Sequence record: OR544956
Length of the DNA stretch: 64,000 nucleotides
Strand: one strand, 5' to 3'
DNA from: Escherichia phage vB_EcoM_EP57
Under the pieces are notes generated by a model, which was not told the DNA's origin, made no database searches, and saw nothing but the letters and a program-made list of their open reading frames with translations. A program made the position numbers and the translations under genes. Position 1 is the stretch's first letter; every line of letters starts with the position of its first letter. Below are positions 1 through 64,000 of this stretch, piece after piece.

Positions 1-481
1 CAACAAAGTTGATAAAGCGATAAAGTCTATTCGAATTCTCAACAATACTGTAAGCTTCACAAATGATCGCTGCATTGTCTTCACCAGCTTCAGGGTAAAT
101 AAACTCTTCAGAAGGTTGAGTATTGAATATAGATGTTACTGTATCTGCTCCTACTGTGACCATAACTGTCATTGAGTAATAACGTTGATCCATGTCATAA
201 GCAGATTTATAACTGTTTATTGTATCTATGTAAACGTTTTTGGCAATCTCTGCTAAAAATATTCTGTCTACAATATCTTTCTTTCTAGCAACACCAATAA
301 TCTCTTGTAAGTAAGGAACACCGAAGTTAGTATTTAAAAACCACTCCCCACGATACGTGTTCAGAGTTATCCCAAGAGTTTGTGCTGCAATTTCTGTTCT
401 GGTTGTAGTGAGGACCAAATCCCCATCATCCATGATGAGGTCGTTGTTTGGTCCAAGTTTTAAGTCAAAAGGGATTCCCAT
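1..481 (-). CDS. baseplate wedge protein (gpW/gp25-like), partial: start at 481, 3' end runs off the window
   Basis: ATG at 481..479 one nt after the upstream stop; open frame to position 1 (MGIPFDLKLGPNNDLIMDDGDLVLTT...); position after a gpV-like gene. Confidence 0.4.
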   Translation of the reverse strand, partial: MGIPFDLKLGPNNDLIMDDGDLVLTTTRTEIAAQTLGITLNTYRGEWFLNTNFGVPYLQEIIGVARKKDIVDRIFLAEIAKNVYIDTINSYKSAYDMDQRYYSMTVMVTVGADTVTSIFNTQPSEEFIYPEAGEDNAAIICEAYSIVENSNRLYRFINFV

Positions 482-5345: not shown

Positions 5346-6094
5346 TTAAACAAGTTTCTTAAACAAATCTGACATTTTATTTGTCTGGTTTTGATGTTTT
5401 CTCTTTATTGAAGTGTCTTTAACATACATGGCTTCAACATACTCTTCGTATGTTAAATACTCATATAGTTTTAAAAGATAATCTACACCGTAGTTATCCA
5501 ATGTTTTCAGTGTTTCCGAGGTATCTTTAACGACTTTGCAAAGAATAACCTCATACCACTTCAAAGTAAGGGTTTTCGTTGCTGTGTCGATAGCATGTTC
5601 AATCGCAGGTGTTAATTTGCTGCTAAACTCGTCATCGCCTGAAGCTGTGTGAACAGTTTTCCGAAACCTCGTTTGAAAAAAGGGCCGTAGTTTACCTCCA
5701 GAACTTTAGCAGTAAGATCTAACACTAGTTCTGGGTGAGCCATAAATAATTCATCAAAATTTTCTGCAACGTTATAACCGTCTTGAGTATAAACCTCATC
5801 TAAAATTTTACGCAAAAATACAGTTAAATTCTTTTCTTCCAAACCTGCAAAAAGTTGGATCAGTGCCATAGCAATACGTGACTCAAGGTCTTCGTCTGCG
5901 GACATTGTTGCTGTGCTATACATAGTCATAGGAACAACCAGAACACTACCCAATTCTGGAATCCTGTCAAACACTTTAGATGGACTCCACTTCATAATAC
6001 GGAAAGTAACAGATCTGTTTCCATCTAACGGAATCTCAACTACTTCTTCTGGTCGAGCATATTTTTGAATCGTGTTATCTTGTTCTTGTGACAT
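5346..6094 (-). CDS. tail assembly chaperone, -1 frameshift fusion product (GT-like)
   Basis: -1 frame is open from the slippery site (plus 5675..5681) through the 5346..5564 ORF. Confidence 0.45.
5612..6094 (-). CDS. tail assembly chaperone (short, G-like product)
   Basis: 160 aa ORF upstream of tape measure; slippery T_TTT_TTC near its 3' end. Confidence 0.5.
   Translation of the reverse strand: MSQEQDNTIQKYARPEEVVEIPLDGNRSVTFRIMKWSPSKVFDRIPELGSVLVVPMTMYSTATMSADEDLESRIAMALIQLFAGLEEKNLTVFLRKILDEVYTQDGYNVAENFDELFMAHPELVLDLTAKVLEVNYGPFFKRGFGKLFTQLQAMTSLAAN
5675..5681 (-). promoter_or_regulatory. -1 programmed ribosomal frameshift slippery heptamer T_TTT_TTC
   Basis: Minus-strand codons ccT TTT TTC in the zero frame of the chaperone gene. 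Confidence 0.45.
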
Positions 6095-18830: not shown

Positions 18831-18909
18831 TGGAGGCGGGAATTGGATTTGAACCAATGATCTCCAGCATATGAAACTGGCGAGGACGACCAGACTCCTC
18901 TATCCCGCT
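18831..18909 (-). tRNA. tRNA-Met (anticodon CAT), 1-72 pair unpaired
   Basis: Hand-folded cloverleaf; T-loop TTCAAAT; anticodon loop TTCATAT; CCA encoded; A1 opposite C72. Confidence 0.55.
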
Positions 18910-18915
18910 ATTATG

Positions 18916-18985
18916 TATCCCGTGCTGGATTCGAACCAGCATCACAATAAGCTGTGGAACTCTTATCCTGTAAGTCTAACGGGAA
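18916..18985 (-). tRNA. tRNA-like element, non-canonical anticodon arm (possible pseudo-tRNA)
   Basis: Canonical T-arm GCTGG-TTCGAAT-CCAGC and 6-bp acceptor stem, but no 5-bp stem with 7-nt loop can be formed; no CCA. Confidence 0.3.
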
Positions 18986-18987
18986 AC

Positions 18988-19061
18988 TGGTTGTTTCGAC
19001 AAGAATCGAACTTGTGTCTCACGATTATCAGTCGTGGGTTCTACCATTGAACTACGAAACA
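18988..19061 (-). tRNA. tRNA-Ile (anticodon GAT)
   Basis: Hand-folded; anticodon stem CACGA/TCGTG, loop CTGATAA; CCA encoded. Confidence 0.65.
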
Positions 19062-19067
19062 TTAAAT

Positions 19068-19144
19068 TGGTCGGAATTGCAGGATTCGAACCTGCGACCC
19101 TACGCTCCCAAAGCGTATGCTCTACCAAACTGAGCTAAATTCCG
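19068..19144 (-). tRNA. tRNA-Pro (anticodon TGG)
   Basis: Hand-folded; D-stem GCTC/GAGC; loop TTTGGGA; T-loop TTCGAAT; CCA encoded. Confidence 0.65.
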
Positions 19145-19237
19145 TCATAACATTCTAAAGGTACACCGCAAAAGAAAGTGTTCGGCGGCTCCTCGTTTTT
19201 AACTTCACACTTGAGGTAGTGACTCACCTTTGTTATA

Positions 19238-19313
19238 TGGCTGGTCTGTCTGGATTTGAACCAAACCTACGACAGTCAAAGTGTCGTGTGCTACCGGACT
19301 ACACTACAAACCA
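19238..19313 (-). tRNA. tRNA-Gln (anticodon TTG)
   Basis: Hand-folded; anticodon stem CGACA/TGTCG, loop CTTTGAC; CCA encoded. Confidence 0.65.
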
Positions 19314-19411
19314 ATAAATCATTTAATGAAGGGCAACCAGAAGAGGTGTGAGAGAAGGAGAAAACCATGAGTAAAAGAGAAAGTTTTCTGGCAACCCTTT
19401 ATTAAATAATT

Positions 19412-19485
19412 TGGAGCGTTCTACGAGGATCGAACTCGTGCCGCCGACTTGGAAGGACGGAATGCTACCGCTACACCAAGAACGC
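19412..19485 (-). tRNA. tRNA-Gly (anticodon TCC)
   Basis: Hand-folded; loop CTTCCAA; one U-U mismatch in anticodon stem; CCA encoded. Confidence 0.6.
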
Positions 19486-19493
19486 CCTACATC

Positions 19494-19523
19494 TTTACTA
19501 TACTACATTTTACTATTGGTTGT
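19494..19523 (-). promoter_or_regulatory. sigma70-like promoter upstream of tRNA-Gly
   Basis: Minus strand AACTATTGACAA, 18-nt spacer, TATAGT. Confidence 0.4.
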
Positions 19524-19801
19524 CAATAGTTTTATTGAGTGGGACAGTGACGAGTATCCCGTTGGGTGACTAGCCCTACGTTCGGTAAGCTAACTTAAAA
19601 TAATACAAAACCAAAGTCAAATATTATTCTTCGTTGCTGTCGATGGGAGAGCCGCTTCTCATTTTGCCCCATCCAACCCTACTCCGGTCAAGTTTCGGGT
19701 AACTCTTTTTGTGTGATCAACACAATACTAAGAACACTGTCTTTCGAACAGACCTTGTGCACAGGATACGACGATCAATCACAGTGCTCTTAATGTTGTG
19801 T

Positions 19802-19876
19802 TGGTGCTCCCACACTGAATCGAACAGAGATCCACGGATTACAAAACCGTTGTAATAGCCATTATACTATAGGAGC
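19802..19876 (-). tRNA. tRNA-Thr (anticodon TGT)
   Basis: Hand-folded; loop TTTGTAA; T-loop TTCGATT; CCA encoded; one mismatch at 31-39. Confidence 0.55.
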
Positions 19877-19882
19877 AAAGCT

Positions 19883-19959
19883 GGGACTCGGCAGGATTCG
19901 ATACCTGCAATTCCAGAAGCCTCTTGGCGACTGGGGGTTTACCTTAACTCTACAAGTCC
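19883..19959 (-). tRNA. tRNA-like element, non-canonical (8-nt T-loop, no standard anticodon arm)
   Basis: 7-bp acceptor stem GGACTTG/CGAGTCC; T-loop TATCGAAT; central region forms an irregular hairpin; no CCA. Confidence 0.3.
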
Positions 19960-19966
19960 ATAATTC

Positions 19967-20052
19967 TGGCGATGAGTATAGGATTTGAACCTATATCGTT
20001 CTTTCGAACACGGATTAACAGTCCGCCGCTTAAACCATTCAGCCAACTCATC
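19967..20052 (-). tRNA. class II (Ser-type) tRNA with anticodon GTT
   Basis: 86 nt; Ser-like D-arm TG-GCT-GAATGGTTTA-AGC; anticodon arm GCGGA-CTGTTAA-TCCGT; 15-nt variable arm with GTTC/GAAC stem; G73; CCA. Confidence 0.5.
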
Positions 20053-20058
20053 TTAATT

Positions 20059-20146
20059 TGGTGGTGAGTGATGGAGTTGAACCACCCGAATCGCAATGAT
20101 AACAGATTTACAGTCTGCCCCGCTACCCCTACGGAATTAACTCACC
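20059..20146 (-). tRNA. tRNA-Tyr (anticodon GTA)
   Basis: 88 nt class II; anticodon arm GCAGA-CTGTAAA-TCTGT; T-loop TTCAACT; CCA. Confidence 0.65.
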
Positions 20147-20224
20147 TAAATACTAATATTTAAATTCTTTTTAAAATAGCCAGTGTTCACACCACTAACT
20201 ATGTAAGCCATATTAAAAAGAACT

Positions 20225-20310
20225 TGGCGGTAGATGTAGGACTCGAACCTACACGCCGTTTCCGACTACAGTTTAGCAAACTGTCGTGGCTACCATTTCA
20301 CCAATCTACC
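20225..20310 (-). tRNA. tRNA-Ser (anticodon GCT)
   Basis: 86 nt class II; anticodon arm ACAGT-TTGCTAA-ACTGT; G73; CCA. Confidence 0.65.
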
Positions 20311-20315
20311 TAATC

Positions 20316-20406
20316 TGGCGGAAGGAGGGAGAGTCGAACTCCCAAGGCTCTTTCAAGCTCGGCGGTTTTCAAGACCGTTTTCGTCGCCACGTCGATTTGC
20401 CCTTCC
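20316..20406 (-). tRNA. tRNA-Ser (anticodon TGA), D-arm degenerate
   Basis: 91 nt; anticodon arm CGGT-CTTGAAA-ACCG; variable-arm hairpin GCTT-GAAA-GAGC; G73; CCA; D region lacks U8 and a regular stem. Confidence 0.5.
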
Positions 20407-20640
20407 ATACTTATAATCTAACATAAAATAATGTTTGTTGTCAATAGTTTTTTAAAACATTTTACCATGAATGGTGACTCCACCAACCCCCGTTCTCCAC
20501 GAACGGTGCTCTTCGAGCATTTATGTCTTCTAATATAACCGTGGCCTTTGTTTATAATGTCTGACATACTTGCCTCATTCTCTGCCACCATGATCAGTAG
20601 TGGGTTCAAATTACTTGAGCTAATTCATGTTAAAATGTTC

Positions 20641-20715
20641 TGGTGTCTTTACAAGGAATCGAACCTTGACTAAGAGTTTAGAAGACTCCTGTGCTATCCA
20701 TTACACCATAAAGAC
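20641..20715 (-). tRNA. tRNA-Arg (anticodon TCT)
   Basis: Hand-folded; anticodon arm GGAGT-CTTCTAA-ACTCT; CCA. Confidence 0.65.
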
Positions 20716-20717
20716 GT

Positions 20718-20792
20718 TGGTGGCCCTGGCTGGTTTCGATCCAGCTACCTATCGGTTATGAGCCGACAGCTCTCCCATTGAGCTACAGGGCC
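20718..20792 (-). tRNA. tRNA-Met or tRNA-Ile2 (anticodon CAT)
   Basis: Hand-folded; D-stem GCTC/GAGC; anticodon arm GTCGG-CTCATAA-CCGAT; T-loop ATCGAAA; CCA. Confidence 0.6.
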
Positions 20793-21782: not shown

Positions 21783-22192
21783 CTATAGATCAAGTATTAT
21801 TTATAATAATTTATTATTTTATTTTTAATTGATAGAAGTTGATCTGTACGTACCAGTTCTGATACACTGTACCTGTTTGTTAGATCTAATAATTATTTAT
21901 TATTAATATTTAATAATTATTAATCTAGTACGGAGTACAGTACTTGAGTACAGAGTACTACATCAACGACCTAAAACCTTAACTCGCTGCGCTCGTTAAT
22001 AGATTTCTAGGGTAACATACTTCGAACACAAAAGTCAAGAGTTTTATTAAAAATTATTTTCTGTGTGCAAAAACCTTGCTTAAACAGGTAGCAATAGTAT
22101 TAAGAGGCTGTAGAGCAAGTTTACTTACTAGGTAAGGTGATTTATCATCTTATATATAAAAAGTGCGTCAGAGACGCGTTTAGGAGGCTAGA

Positions 22193-34182: not shown

Positions 34183-34190
34183 TGAAACTA

Positions 34191-34213
34191 GGGGCTTCGG
34201 CCCCTTTTTATTG
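34191..34213 (+). terminator. rho-independent terminator
   Basis: ggggc-ttcg-gcccc then TTTTTATT. Confidence 0.5.
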
Positions 34214-34226
34214 AGGAGAATTTTAA

Positions 34227-48297: not shown

Positions 48298-48322
48298 AAC
48301 CCGCTTCGGCGGGTTTTTTATT
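48298..48322 (+). terminator. rho-independent terminator
   Basis: cccgc-ttcg-gcggg then TTTTTTATT. Confidence 0.55.
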
Positions 48323-48349
48323 GACAGGAATCTGGAAGCTTGATAAACT
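48321..48349 (+). promoter_or_regulatory. sigma70-like promoter
   Basis: TTGACA, 17-nt spacer, TAAACT. Confidence 0.35.
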
Positions 48350-51047: not shown

Positions 51048-51409
51048 TGCCGATATCTGAACAAAGCCTCCTGTTTCAGGGGGCTTTTCTTTTATAGGAG
51101 GGAATATGTTTCAATGCACATTGGTTGGTGAGCAAACTAAAAGAAAAAGAGAAACCATTTCCTACTCTGCTTGATCGTTCTCTTGTGGAAGATGCAGGTA
51201 AAGCATATGCAGACTATGCGTATGCAGACGGGAAATATTTGGAAGATGATAAGGCTAACCATTTGCTTTATGTTTACTATGAAGCTGAATCTGCCTACGA
51301 TAATTATTACAGCATGTCTAACATCCTACGTCTGTTTGCAGAGTTTGATATTTATTAAACAAATAAACCACTCAAGGGGCTTCGGCCCCTTTCTTATTAG
51401 GAGAATAAA

Positions 51410-51943: not shown

Positions 51944-51967
51944 ACGACCTCCTATTGCTACAGATAT

Positions 51968-51990
51968 GAAAAAACCCGCCGAAGCGGGTT
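51968..51990 (-). terminator. rho-independent terminator
   Basis: cccgc-cgaa-gcggg followed on minus strand by TTTTTTC. Confidence 0.45.
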
Positions 51991-54746: not shown

Positions 54747-55106
54747 TCTTCCTCCTGTTCGGTATTATTCACTTGTGAGACACAATGTAACACAAGCTTT
54801 GTGAGTTTGTCAAGGATCTAATTACATTCTACAGAAGAAGAGGGTTAATAACTATAGGAATAGTCTTACTATAGGTGCAATACTAGTTAAGAGTTAGATT
54901 GATAGGTAAGACTTATCTTAAACAGATAATTGATAGGTGAATCAGCATTGACTTTTTCAAAAAAATATGGTACCCTAAACATATGTTTACGAGCGATAGC
55001 GAGTAGTAGATTTCTATATAATAATGTTTCATGTTACTCACGATAGTGAGGTATGAAACGTAAGTGAAGGTAGATAAACTATGATCATCTATCTACCATC
55101 TATTAA

Positions 55107-55873: not shown

Positions 55874-56077
55874 TTACTCATTTCTACCTCCTTCAATGCT
55901 TTGTGCCGTACCATCCCAAGCCATTAGAATATTTGCCAATAGCTCACGAGGCTCTTTAAACCAAACTTCCATTTCATCAAGGATCTCGTCCGTGTCGTAA
56001 GTATAACCTGGAACACCAAGTTCACATTTCTTAAGATAGCTTTCTAACCAGCGGTGATAATTCTTAACCCCATTCAT
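55874..56077 (-). CDS. hypothetical protein
   Basis: ORF track 67 aa. Confidence 0.25.
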   Translation of the reverse strand: MNGVKNYHRWLESYLKKCELGVPGYTYDTDEILDEMEVWFKEPRELLANILMAWDGTAQSIEGGRNE

Positions 56078-56450
56078 ACTGTGCTACCTTTTCTTTTACC
56101 CAATCTACACGATCTTTATCATAATGTTGAGTGCCAAGGAAAAGACCATTGTGGAAACTTTCCTCACCGAAAGGATAAATTGGATCTAAACCATCTTCTT
56201 CAAACAACATTTTTAATCTGTTTGATGTAGATTTCTTAGTTTCTGAATTGTAGTTTGTGGTTATAAGCCAATCTTCCAAACAACGACACAAGCCTTGACG
56301 AGAATCCCAAGGAAAAACACAATCTCCGACAGGAGCTTGTTCCGCCCATTTCAACCAACCTTTAAAAAAGTTATACAATATGTAGTCTTCAGTGTAATAC
56401 ATTAGCGCCTCCTTTACATATACAATAACACCCCGCAGAACGGGGTGCAA
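56064..56450 (-). CDS. family-A paralog 1 (GLC...PF...R-V-x-W-V-K motif family)
   Basis: 128 aa; shares GLCRCL, YPFG and DRVDWVKEKV blocks with three other ORFs. Confidence 0.4.
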   Translation of the reverse strand: MHPVLRGVIVYVKEALMYYTEDYILYNFFKGWLKWAEQAPVGDCVFPWDSRQGLCRCLEDWLITTNYNSETKKSTSNRLKMLFEEDGLDPIYPFGEESFHNGLFLGTQHYDKDRVDWVKEKVAQYEWG

Positions 56451-57069: not shown

Positions 57070-57342
57070 TCACCCCCAAGAAATATTTATATATCTTACA
57101 ATGTTTGCACTGTCTAAAGCCATGTTTGCACCACACCCACGCTCGCGCCAGTAACTAACAATACCTTCACAGATACTCTCTTGTATCTTCTTATCACTTG
57201 GCATTTCTAGTATAAGACTTGGGTTATGGATGTTTATGTTATAATATCCTTCCTCTGCGGCTTGAGCTACCAATTTACTTACTTTTTCAAAGTACGGGGA
57301 ATTAGTGGCATCTGCTATTGTTTTTAAGGTTTGTCTATCCAT
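57070..57342 (-). CDS. hypothetical protein
   Basis: ORF track 90 aa. Confidence 0.3.
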   Translation of the reverse strand: MDRQTLKTIADATNSPYFEKVSKLVAQAAEEGYYNINIHNPSLILEMPSDKKIQESICEGIVSYWRERGCGANMALDSANIVRYINISWG

Positions 57343-57740
57343 TATTCTGCCTCATCATAGAAGAAATCCAACTCTTGTTCCAGTTGTTTAACTCGATCCT
57401 TAACCCACTGTACACGTTTTTCATTAAACATGCAACGTTTTTCCTTACACTCTTGCTCAAAAGATTTTGCTGTGTTAAATGGGAAAGTTGTATCTAAGCC
57501 AGCGTTTTCAAAACTGGCTAATTGCATACCATAAACAGAATATGCTAAAGAATGCTCGGCCCGAAATTCATCACTTATATACATACGTAGACCTCGGCAT
57601 AAGCCAACATCAGCGTAACCACTTTCTCTTGGAAAGAGACGGAGGTGTTCTAACCAATTATTATAAAAATCTAAAAGAATCCTCTTACACTTCAAATCGA
57701 TTGTCATAAAAAGTTTCTCCTTCATCGAACAAGTTGGCAA
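57342..57740 (-). CDS. family-A paralog 2
   Basis: 132 aa; GLCRGL, FPFN, KRVQWVKDRV blocks. Confidence 0.4.
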   Translation of the reverse strand: MPTCSMKEKLFMTIDLKCKRILLDFYNNWLEHLRLFPRESGYADVGLCRGLRMYISDEFRAEHSLAYSVYGMQLASFENAGLDTTFPFNTAKSFEQECKEKRCMFNEKRVQWVKDRVKQLEQELDFFYDEAE

Positions 57741-58026
57741 GATTGTTCACGGCAATCTGGGTGGAAAGAAGACAACTGTTTGCAGACACATAAGCACGAG
57801 CTATTTTGTAAACATAAACTTTCGTATTACAATTGTCTAGGATCGGAAGACTTTCGTCGATAGCATCTATAACACTAAACATCACATCTAAAACTTTAAT
57901 GGTGAGTGTTGTATTTGTATCTTCGTAACCTTTTTCAATCCGACCTGAATAGAAAGCATAGTCCTCAACAGTTCGTCGTTTAAACTGGCGCATAAAATCG
58001 GAACCATCTGTAGCAGAATTGAACAA
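57685..58026 (-). CDS. hypothetical protein
   Basis: ORF track 113 aa. Confidence 0.3.
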   Translation of the reverse strand: MFNSATDGSDFMRQFKRRTVEDYAFYSGRIEKGYEDTNTTLTIKVLDVMFSVIDAIDESLPILDNCNTKVYVYKIARAYVSANSCLLSTQIAVNNLANLFDEGETFYDNRFEV

Positions 58027-58114
58027 ATTTTCAAAAAATACGTCCCATCCGGCAAAAGGGCTGACAGCATGATTAAGTGATCTACAGATTCATTTTCTTG
58101 TTTCATATCCTCTC

Positions 58115-58792
58115 CTATTTAATGTTCAGTCTGGCACACAAACGGGAAACAGTTTTAGCATCCCATTTACCACCACGTGCTGTTGCTATTTTCTTACTAT
58201 TGAATTTTTCAGCAATAGTTTTGTAAGGTGTATTTAAATCTCTAAGGATCTCCAAGCGTTCACGGAATGTCTCTGCAAAAGCGTCTGCTTTAACAGAATT
58301 GTATTCCATTTTTCCTTTTCTACGTGCAGCGGCAGTTTTAGGATTAGCACTGCCTAATAAAACACCTTTACTTTTTGCTACAGCAAGACCCTTTTTAATA
58401 CGATCAGCAATACCTCTAACTTCTTGTTCAGCCAGAACAGACAGAAGCTGTATAACCATTTTATCTGCGTCTGGCATAATGGCTATCTTAACATCGATCA
58501 TTTCTAGAAGAGTTGCTACGGAGGCGTTGTTACGACCCAAGCGGTCAACTTTAGCTACCAATAAAGTTGCTCCGGTAGCTTTACACATTTCAACCGCTTT
58601 AACCAGTTCCTTACGTTGCTTCCAATCGCCCTTACCCGAATAGTATTCAGAAAATTGACCAATAACTTCCGCATCAGGCACAGAGTCTAAGAAGTAACGG
58701 ATATCATTCTCTTGGCTCTCCATACCATATTGTGCCTCACCTTTTTTCTGTTTAGAAAGACGACTGTAAACAACAAACTTTTTCATAACCAC
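58115..58792 (-). CDS. serine recombinase (resolvase/invertase family)
   Basis: VYSRLSKQ catalytic-Ser region, VDRLGRN motif, C-terminal HTH; own TTGACA promoter upstream. Confidence 0.65.
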   Translation of the reverse strand: MVMKKFVVYSRLSKQKKGEAQYGMESQENDIRYFLDSVPDAEVIGQFSEYYSGKGDWKQRKELVKAVEMCKATGATLLVAKVDRLGRNNASVATLLEMIDVKIAIMPDADKMVIQLLSVLAEQEVRGIADRIKKGLAVAKSKGVLLGSANPKTAAARRKGKMEYNSVKADAFAETFRERLEILRDLNTPYKTIAEKFNSKKIATARGGKWDAKTVSRLCARLNIK

Positions 58793-58856
58793 TCCTAAAC
58801 TATTGCTGTATTCTCACTTTACAAAACGAATAAACACTTGTCAAGGTATTTATTAT

Positions 58857-59069
58857 TTACAGCCATTCTACTCTTAAGCAGTATTCCTCGACATGTTGTT
58901 TACGCTTGTTTTTGTCTATGTAAGTGTATTCAACAAATGTCCCAAGATAGTCCTTGTCTACATTGTGTGGGCTATTGATTGGACATTTAGTACGACAAAC
59001 CCGTTGCCACTGACGAAGAATTACGGCTTTGTTTTTAGGATCAAAGGGATGAGGGTAATGTACCTTCAT
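58857..59069 (-). CDS. hypothetical protein
   Basis: ORF track 70 aa. Confidence 0.3.
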   Translation of the reverse strand: MKVHYPHPFDPKNKAVILRQWQRVCRTKCPINSPHNVDKDYLGTFVEYTYIDKNKRKQHVEEYCLRVEWL

Positions 59070-60224: not shown

Positions 60225-60551
60225 TCAACTATTTATTTCTTCTGCTACACGTTCTTTTACCCAGTTCACACGATCCACATTCAAATGACAACGGCTTTTT
60301 TCCGCTTCTAAGGTGTACTTTCCAAAATTACTGTTGAAAGGCAACACCATAACCAAATCTTTGTGGTAGAACTGCTCATGCATTTCATCCAGTACGGGTT
60401 CGTATCGTTCGCTTTCACCCATATCGTAAAAATCATAGAGGTTCGAGCACAAACCTGTGCAACGGGTGAACGGTTCGCCTTCAGGAGCACCAGCTTCCAA
60501 CCATGCCAAATACGTGCGGTAAAATGTTAATAGTTCTTCGCTCATTTCCAC
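60225..60551 (-). CDS. family-A paralog 3
   Basis: 108 aa; YLAWLEAGAP, GLCSNL, LPFN, CHLNVDRVNWVKERVAEE. Confidence 0.45.
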   Translation of the reverse strand: MEMSEELLTFYRTYLAWLEAGAPEGEPFTRCTGLCSNLYDFYDMGESERYEPVLDEMHEQFYHKDLVMVLPFNSNFGKYTLEAEKSRCHLNVDRVNWVKERVAEEINS

Positions 60552-60760: not shown

Positions 60761-60984
60761 TCTTCCATCTCAAACCATTCAGGGAACACTTTGCGGAAGA
60801 CCCGCGTGTTTTCTAAGAGAAATTCCAACTCTTTTTCCAAATCTGCGTTCCAACCGTTTATTTTAACACGGATTGCCAATGCACTTGCACGGCGACTCAA
60901 TTCTTGACAGATTGGATCACGCAGAACTATTGAGTCATAAAACTGACAAACAGCCTCAAGTTCATACCAGTTATAATCCGACAT
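60757..60984 (-). CDS. hypothetical protein
   Basis: ORF track 75 aa. Confidence 0.3.
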   Translation of the reverse strand: MSDYNWYELEAVCQFYDSIVLRDPICQELSRRASALAIRVKINGWNADLEKELEFLLENTRVFRKVFPEWFEMEE

Positions 60985-61310
60985 TATTCATCCTCCTCTG
61001 CAATACGATCTCTTACCCAATTAATCCTGTCCACATTCAGGTGACATACCTCTGCATCTGATTCTAAGACATATGCATCGTAGTTCTCATTGAAGGGTAA
61101 TTCTTGACTCAACCCTTTGTAGTAAAACTGTGCGTGCATTTCATCTGACAAGGTTGTTATAAGGGGATTGTAGCCATCCGCGTGCACATAGTCGAATAAG
61201 TTGGCACACAAACCGCAATCCCGCCGAAAAGGTTTACCATCAGGAGCACCAACATCAATCCATGCTAGATAAATTTTATAAAACTTCATCAACCTTGCGC
61301 TTGTTTTCAT
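60984..61310 (-). CDS. family-A paralog 4
   Basis: 108 aa; YLAWIDVGAP, GLCANL, LPFN, CHLNVDRINWVRDRIAEE; about half identical to paralog 3 by eye. Confidence 0.45.
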   Translation of the reverse strand: MKTSARLMKFYKIYLAWIDVGAPDGKPFRRDCGLCANLFDYVHADGYNPLITTLSDEMHAQFYYKGLSQELPFNENYDAYVLESDAEVCHLNVDRINWVRDRIAEEDE

Positions 61311-63704: not shown

Positions 63705-64000
63705 ATTATGCTCCTTTGTAGATTATGTTGGTGCGTTCACACTCTGCCACCAGCAAGCGATTAGCAATGTTGTCCATAGGAACATCAATCTCTACACTCC
63801 AGGCATTGATACACACTTCTTCAATCTTTGCTCCCAACATTTGTGCGTTATTTATCTTGCTTGTATCTTACAAGGCGATCACACTCTAAATCAAGAAATT
63901 TCTCCGCATTTCGTTCATGTTTGAGCACAATACATTGTTCTTTCCAGTCTGTAGCTCTTTGCTGCGCTGCTCCTGGGTCAAAATCCCAAAGCCATGCCGC

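Follow-up and report, generated by a model that had tools for sequence, protein, structure and literature searches.

A conserved small serine recombinase of a virulent Escherichia phage and its possible action on one site per genome

What role could a site-specific recombinase have in a purely lytic cycle? The question is raised by a gene of Escherichia phage vB_EcoM_EP57, which we analyzed within a stretch of 64,000 nucleotides of the phage DNA (sequence record OR544956; hereafter, the window). In GenBank the gene has annotations already, which name its product a DNA invertase, a resolvase or a serine recombinase. In the literature we searched, we found neither a functional study of this recombinase nor an experimentally studied member of the protein family to which we assign it below, and one paper speculates that it keeps 'concatemers as single genome' (PMC10282059). 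An earlier reading of the locus, made from the letters alone (the sequence-only reading), had offered three roles, i.e. driving inversion of a DNA segment, resolving replication multimers, or belonging to a mobile cassette.

The region examined was 96.6-99.9% identical to Phapecoctavirus genomes, with TSP7_1 as the best match. By this similarity, the window belongs to a Phapecoctavirus, one of the virulent phAPEC8-like myoviruses of the subfamily Stephanstirmvirinae, which have genomes of about 150 kb. The phAPEC8-like phages have been described as strictly lytic (PMC10282059). For genome-wide searches we used a composite genome of 143 kb, which consisted of the window and the rest of TSP7_1. 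Elsewhere in the window, ten tRNA genes (two of them for tRNA-Met) are clustered on the minus strand at 18831-20792, and a 47-bp AT-rich palindrome at 21881-21927, 87.5% self-complementary, lies at the strand switch between this cluster and a plus-strand block, where it may serve as an origin or for divergent control of the two sides.

The recombinase gene and the features that surround it are listed in Table 1. The entry found by the ORF finder (58115..58792, minus strand) starts at the GTG at 58792 and encodes 225 aa, the length given in the sequence-only reading. This open reading frame is present, but the ATG at 58786 is the more likely start, with a product of 223 aa, because it is preceded at a distance of 5 nt by an AGGAG sequence and because the gene is annotated with 672 nt in the GenBank relatives.

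Table 1. Positions of the recombinase gene, its predicted control elements and other features discussed in the text (window coordinates unless another record is named).
Feature	Coordinates	Strand	Remarks
Serine recombinase CDS	58115..58786	-	223 aa; stop codon at 58115-58117
Codon of the nucleophile Ser11	58754-58756	-	recombinase gene
Catalytic domain and helix E	aa ~1-140		recombinase
C-terminal DNA-binding domain	58118-58348 (aa ~147-223)	-	recombinase
Ribosome-binding site AGGAG	58792..58796	-	5 nt before ATG 58786; GTG 58792 lies within it
Predicted sigma-70-type promoter, TTGACA-17-TAAAGT	58816..58844	-	-35 at 58844-58839, -10 at 58821-58816; match at 10 of 12 positions
26-bp imperfect dyad AATAAACACTTGTCAAGGTATTTATT	58829..58854		pairing at 9 of 11 arm positions; the -35 lies at its centre
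DUF7202 protein	58857..59069	-	70 aa; upstream neighbour; PF23832, 2.2e-37
Homologue of tuntematon gp187	57685..58106	-	140 aa; downstream neighbour; frameshifted in the window
Family A paralogue	56064..56450	-	repeat family D1; VOG7392
Family A paralogue	57342..57740	-	downstream side of the recombinase; VOG7392 (label of the tuntematon homologue)
Family A paralogue	60225..60551	-	upstream side; repeat families D1, D2, D4; VOG7392
Family A paralogue	60984..61310	-	upstream side; repeat families; VOG7392
Terminator hairpin pair	48298-48323 / 51965-51990		among the best 'inverted repeats' in the genome
Terminator hairpin pair	34190-34221 / 51375-51406		among the best 'inverted repeats' in the genome
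Recombinase gene in phage alia	L003 5998-6660		compare the empty slot below
Empty slot in tuntematon	L004 6648-6695		counterpart of the alia locus

The first claim of the sequence-only reading, that the protein is a small serine recombinase, was confirmed. The N-terminal resolvase domain of Pfam (PF00239) matched residues 5-142 with 66 bits, against a cut-off of 23.3, and the motifs YSRLSKQ and DRLGRN on which the claim rested are both present. In an alignment of 45 homologues, Y7, R9, S11, R58, D81, R82 and R85 were invariant, and the helix-E residues E120, E122 and R129 were nearly so. In the AlphaFold2 model (pLDDT 89.5), the catalytic domain is of the mixed alpha/beta type and leads into a long helix E (aa 109-139); the Foldseek matches of the model included Sin (catalytic domain), TP901-1 and Bxb1. 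Among the PHROGs families, the match to PHROG 125, labelled 'DNA invertase', covered aa 1-222 (2.6e-32), and the large-integrase family 95 was matched with 7.6e-22. By its Pfam match, catalytic motifs and predicted fold, the protein is thus a member of the serine recombinase superfamily, and by its residues it is catalytically intact.

The C-terminal part did not conform to the helix-turn-helix that had been proposed for it. No match to HTH_7 was found in Pfam at E<=0.1; the model is helical in this part, and the domain gave a weak match to PF07508, 'Recombinase' (aa 187-216, E 0.003, below the cut-off of this family), with which some of the homologues are annotated. The profile of the recombinase's own family matched Gin (2e-17), Tn3 and gamma-delta (both ~1e-15) and Sin (2e-14) over the catalytic domain and helix E only. 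The C-terminal ~75 aa could be aligned only with large serine integrases, Bxb1 being matched over positions 18-202 of this profile and SPbeta over 108-216, and Bxb1 was also the top Foldseek match of the model, over 259 columns. The domain is therefore better described as a truncated integrase-type domain, similar to the initial portion of the 'recombinase domain' in large integrases. In single-sequence comparison, the similarity to resolvases of the Tn3, gamma-delta and Sin type was distant (E 3e-6, aa 45-146). No NCBIfam model reached its cut-off; a weak but nearly full-length match was obtained for the Mpi family (E 7e-5). By full-length similarity, the protein belongs to the ~220-aa family that corresponds to PHROG 125, for which we collected 3,801 cluster representatives at E<=1e-30, mostly of 215-240 aa and covering profile positions 1-220; this type of architecture is thus a common one.

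Strong purifying selection on the gene is indicated by the contrast between protein and DNA: 62 phage records in GenBank encode a protein with at least 99% identity, although the DNA of the gene varies by up to 2.4% (identities of 97.6-99.9% over 64 records). Comparison with three relatives gave 26 synonymous changes and 1 non-synonymous change; for two neighbouring genes, the corresponding ratios were 18:9 and 29:10. The same protein, without any difference, is encoded by phages isolated on E. coli, Shigella and Klebsiella. The recombinase is conserved across Stephanstirmvirinae, and distant relatives are found in myoviruses of Shewanella and Vibrio with genomes of 127-149 kb. Judging from these sequences, the enzyme is almost certainly active and of use to the phage. 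In the phage Schickermooser, an otherwise near-identical gene (L012 11303-11955) carries six small indels of 1-7 nt between codons ~12 and 75, and only a C-terminal fragment of 128 aa has been annotated; the indels may reflect either a real loss or a problem of sequencing or assembly.

The relationship of the C-terminal domain to large serine integrases could mean that the protein is an integrase or serves persistence, with the phage integrated or episomal in some hosts, in a hidden temperate or carrier state. A homologue at the edge of a Pseudomonas prophage, located beside host genes and 36% identical to our protein (34% over aa 1-146 and 30% over the C-terminal part), also speaks for such a function. 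However, the zinc-ribbon and coiled-coil domains specific to these integrases are missing, a search of 5,426 complete E. coli genomes detected no copy of the gene at the sensitivity of blastn, and a strictly lytic life style has been described for the phages (PMC10282059). For these reasons an integrase role is unlikely, and we regard a hidden persistent state of this phage as extremely improbable.

These results argue against taking the recombinase gene as a marker of lysogeny here, since it is conserved and selected in a group described as strictly lytic, had no copy in the E. coli genomes searched and does not encode the integrase-specific domains. This matters in practice: phAPEC8-like phages are often considered for therapy, and in the screening of therapeutic phages a recombinase gene is used as a warning of temperate behaviour.

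We then considered how the gene may be expressed. The sequence-only reading had assigned to it a TTGACA promoter of its own, and this assignment stood. At a corresponding place, a short way upstream of the recombinase gene, most of the divergent homologues examined also have a -35 element of the type TTGAC(A/T), among them alia, FKP3, phiWec181, ICP1, P0003 and P0004. As a class, promoter-like matches were not enriched in the region (15 found, 12.2 +/- 3.5 expected). The predicted promoter is dedicated to the recombinase gene. We also noticed a promoter-leader element at 54940-55012, composed of TTGACT-17-TACCCT followed by GAGCGATAGCGAGTA. Many further copies lie between small genes beyond the window, in the composite genome at about 71-80.5 kb, about 88.4 kb and about 101.3 kb, and the element is probably the signature of a family of strong early promoters.

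The position of the gene relative to the genome ends could be estimated from Schickermooser, whose direct terminal repeat (DTR) is 329 bp long in our comparison (L012 1-329 is the same as L013 2672-3000) and was reported as 328 bp (PMC6563267). Position 64000 of the window corresponds to position 5811 of Schickermooser, which places the DTR about 5.8 kb past the window end. Provided that the first position of this record is the physical end, the recombinase gene would lie ~11 kb from the left end, inside a long block of small genes, and would be transcribed away from that end. This layout near a genome end, together with the host-type promoter, suggests early expression. Short terminal repeats were reported for both Schickermooser and BME3; the record ends of phiWec181 and BME3 gave no information on the position of termini relative to the window. 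The Schickermooser DTR is embedded in ~1.8 kb of non-coding DNA in which AT-rich dyads and Fur-box-like motifs of the GATAAT-/ATTATC type can be recognized by eye.

The sequence-only reading had placed the gene between duplicated family-A genes and away from tail-fibre genes, and both observations were correct. Four family A paralogues flank the recombinase; three of them (56064-56450, 60225-60551 and 60984-61310) are connected through the repeat families D1, D2 and D4, and the homologues of all four are labelled VOG7392 in the phage tuntematon. The tail-fibre genes are located outside the window, as judged from the 99.9%-identical genome of TSP7_1. With regard to the immediate neighbours, an annotation error is found in several GenBank records, in which the name '(methionine) ABC transporter ATP-binding protein' has been given to the DUF7202 gene or to the recombinase. 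The frameshift in the gp187 homologue is due to the deletion of 1 nt in a T5 run near 58057 that is intact in UP17 and tuntematon, and it may be either a homopolymer sequencing error or a sign of a real pseudogene.

Crossover sites were then sought around the gene and in the whole genome. We found no convincing pair of direct or inverted repeats within 12 kb of the recombinase, and the 20-30 bp pair that the sequence-only reading had suggested looking for near the gene was likewise not found in the 143-kb composite genome. Self-BLAST of the composite genome returned only terminator hairpins and the early promoter-leader repeats, and no candidate site pair. The best 'inverted repeats' were pairs of terminator hairpins; near-identical GC-rich hairpins, AACCCGCTTCGGCGGGTT and AGGGGCTTCGGCCCCT, are reused at the ends of several gene blocks. 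Genome-wide, dyads with 12-bp arms and centres of 0-6 bp were not above shuffled controls once the terminator hairpins had been set aside. The idea of a crossover site in the DTR, which would serve circularization in the manner of Cre-lox in P1, was also considered, and no copy of the dyad that overlaps the recombinase promoter was found there.

Rearranged genomes were looked for among GenBank phages in two regions, window positions 39001-64000 and the 25-kb tail-fibre region. Of the ~60 closely related Phapecoctavirus records listed, nearly all mapped to one place, the exceptions being records split at their ends and the WPEC assemblies, and no inverted segment was detected. The oversized WPEC1, WPEC2 and WPEC4 assemblies were rejected as rearranged genomes: WPEC2 (PV691511.1, L022 41300-44700) is a patchwork of chimeric pieces of read length (~150 bp) that come from scattered genome positions.

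These results bear on the possibility that the enzyme is a DNA invertase that flips a phage segment such as a promoter or a host-range switch, maybe at a distance, as Mpi of Bacteroides does. The 'DNA invertase' label of PHROG 125, the Gin profile match and the weak match to the Mpi family all favour this function. On the other side, the inverted-repeat pairs are terminator hairpins only, the ~60 genomes show one orientation in the two regions screened, and the tail-fibre variation in the group arises by sequence replacement and not by inversion. We also found no invertible tail-fibre segment at the prophage-borne homologues P0089 and P0071. With neither inverted sites nor, in the regions screened, orientation variants, an invertase role is unlikely, and the inversion proposed in the sequence-only reading is disfavoured; we consider a flipped phage segment very unlikely.

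We then compared the loci in which the gene is found. In Justusliebigvirus (alia and FKP3), it is located between the homologues of tuntematon gp227 and gp226, in a block with the order PhoH-HslV-methyltransferase ... phosphatase-DprA. The corresponding slot of Phapecoctavirus contains only a terminator hairpin, and the recombinase gene is about 15 kb away and on the other strand. In Shewanella phage 1/4, the order is ligase, recombinase, small gene, DprA. Since the locus on the DprA side is common to Justusliebigvirus and Shewanella phage 1/4, it is probably older than the locus in the early block. Within the early block, the immediate neighbours of the gene are non-homologous among the window phage, phiWec181 and Tr1. 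The ICP1 copy that we examined is located among genes to which no classical ICP1 gp numbers are assigned.

Such changes of place may be explained by a selfish or relocating cassette, composed of the promoter and the gene and of little use to the phage, comparable to free-standing homing endonuclease genes in large phages. This is consistent with the different loci in sister genera, the non-homologous neighbours in the early block, the promoter that the gene carries with it, the setting of the ICP1 copy and the disrupted allele of Schickermooser. However, at the insertion boundaries in Justusliebigvirus we found no terminal repeats or recognizable ends, the terminator being simply replaced by the promoter and the gene; the purifying selection is strong, and the shared locus near DprA points to long vertical inheritance. 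The mobile cassette of the sequence-only reading thus retains some support from the change of locus but none from visible cassette ends, and we judge a largely selfish element to be unlikely.

Homologues on other replicons suggest a different function. Full-length relatives with 35-40% identity and at least 95% coverage are the sole recombinases on plasmids of 5.8-30 kb, e.g. a 5.8-kb plasmid of Marinovum with RepA and ParA and a 5.8-kb plasmid of Klebsiella. A lone recombinase on a small plasmid normally has a multimer-resolution function. On the 5.8-kb plasmid of Klebsiella aerogenes, a 34-bp dyad, TATCATTTGTTTGCCG-AA-CGGCAAATTTATGATA, with a 2-bp centre (L027 4323-4356), lies 34 bp upstream of a recombinase gene whose product is 36% identical to ours, and it is a plausible crossover site of this plasmid member of the family.

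Of the three roles offered at the outset, the resolution of multimers appears to fit these data best. We tentatively propose that the recombinase is a resolvase-type enzyme that acts on one site per phage genome, a reading which we favour while regarding it as possible rather than established. A dimer of the enzyme would bind the single site, and where genome copies are joined head to tail, in dimeric circles or in replication concatemers, two site-bound dimers would synapse. This would take place early in infection, on replicating phage DNA, as in the multimer-resolution systems of plasmids. The proposal is based on the plasmid relatives, presumed to be multimer resolvases from their context, on the apparently ancestral place of the gene near a DprA-like gene (and a ligase in phage 1/4), PhoH being part of the same block, and on the deep conservation of the gene in large virulent myoviruses, two of them with reported short terminal repeats. 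The absence of a site pair within the genome is also in agreement with a single site per genome, as is the absence of inversions from the two regions screened in the ~60 genomes. The sequence-only reading had stated that the lack of a repeat pair, along with a lack of read-level evidence of inversion or deletion, would refute its proposal. A pair was indeed not found, but this is too strong a demand on a multimer resolvase, because a single site in each genome copy is enough for an enzyme that acts on multimers or concatemers.

Our confidence in a resolvase is limited, since lytic phages package their DNA from concatemers and an obvious benefit of resolving them is not apparent. In addition, the Schickermooser allele suggests that the gene is dispensable and the setting of the ICP1 copy suggests an accessory gene, while the analogy with plasmids is drawn from gene context.

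The sole candidate for the site of such a resolvase is the imperfect dyad over the -35 of the gene's own promoter, and if the enzyme bound there, autoregulation would follow. The dyad occurs once in the composite genome, and four further Phapecoctavirus records (UP17, tuntematon, Schickermooser and WPEC2) also have it in front of the recombinase gene. However, its score is within chance, and its distribution does not follow that of the DNA-binding domain: the homologues P0002-P0004, which have a nearly identical C-terminal helix, lack it in their upstream DNA. Dyads of some kind were found upstream of the gene at 5 of 16 loci, a modest enrichment compared with a background of 8.7% (p about 0.01), some of these being terminators. 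As a candidate operator or single crossover site, the 26-bp dyad is weak.

The two domains of the protein differ in their rate of change, with the C-terminus diverging faster than the catalytic domain across the family. Compared with the window protein, other relatives have 83-87% identity over aa 1-146 and 57-69% over the C-terminus, whereas the phiWec-type protein (P0005; phiWec181, L007 5001-5675) has 95% identity over aa 1-146 and 36% over the C-terminus. This indicates that in the phiWec-type protein the DNA-binding domain has been exchanged. Such a swap is natural material for studying how target specificity changes in small serine recombinases.

A DNA-binding domain that evolves much faster than the catalytic domain, and is replaced in the phiWec type, is the pattern expected if the target changes. 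The recombinase might therefore be directed at the host or at competitors; produced without delay from a host-type promoter among genes for take-over, it would cut and rearrange sites in the chromosome, a prophage, a plasmid or a satellite and not in the phage genome. The sigma-70-type promoter that most of the homologues examined have of their own, the place of the Phapecoctavirus gene in a small-gene block by the genome end and the lack of a convincing site in our searches of the phage genome would agree with this. In Justusliebigvirus and Shewanella phage 1/4, however, the gene is found among genes of DNA metabolism, and an identical protein is present in phages from E. coli, Shigella and Klebsiella; we consider a target outside the phage rather unlikely. 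A more specific form of this explanation would be that a lineage of virulent, terminally repetitive myoviruses, comprising Stephanstirmvirinae and their Shewanella and Vibrio relatives, keeps the recombinase, with a host-type promoter of its own, as a weapon for take-over or counter-defence and not as a housekeeping resolvase, and that the fast-diverging and at times swapped domain aims it at DNA outside the phage genome. In this extended form the explanation seems to us quite improbable.

The resolvase that we tentatively favour can finally be compared with the known systems. With Tn3 and gamma-delta resolvases and Sin, the recombinase shares the catalytic domain, helix E, the catalytic residues and the size, and the proposed action, resolution between direct copies of one site, would be the same. 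It differs from them in that it has no HTH_7 and no res-like array of subsites beside the gene, and in that those enzymes come from transposons or plasmids whereas this one is encoded by a virulent phage. Among proteins with solved structures, Gin gave the best profile match (2e-17), and like Gin, Hin and Cin (phages Mu and P1; Salmonella), which include phage-encoded enzymes, the recombinase carries the label 'DNA invertase' in many records and in PHROG 125. It differs from this group in the type of its C-terminal domain, in the absence of adjoining tail-fibre genes and of flanking inverted sites, and in that inversion was absent from the regions screened in the ~60 genomes. The large serine integrases (Bxb1, SPbeta and PhiC31) are the only ones of these with which the C-terminal domain aligns, and they share with it the motif IA..(F/L)N....(I/V).T.RG..W....V.R, typical of PF07508. 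They are, however, proteins of 450-600 aa, whereas the recombinase, at 223 aa, has ~75 aa after helix E, with no counterpart to the remainder of the recombinase domain, to the zinc-ribbon domain or to the coiled coil. The closest likeness is to the group of ~220-aa 'recombinase family proteins' from small plasmids and phages (PHROG 125), with which the homology is full-length and the two-domain architecture is the same.
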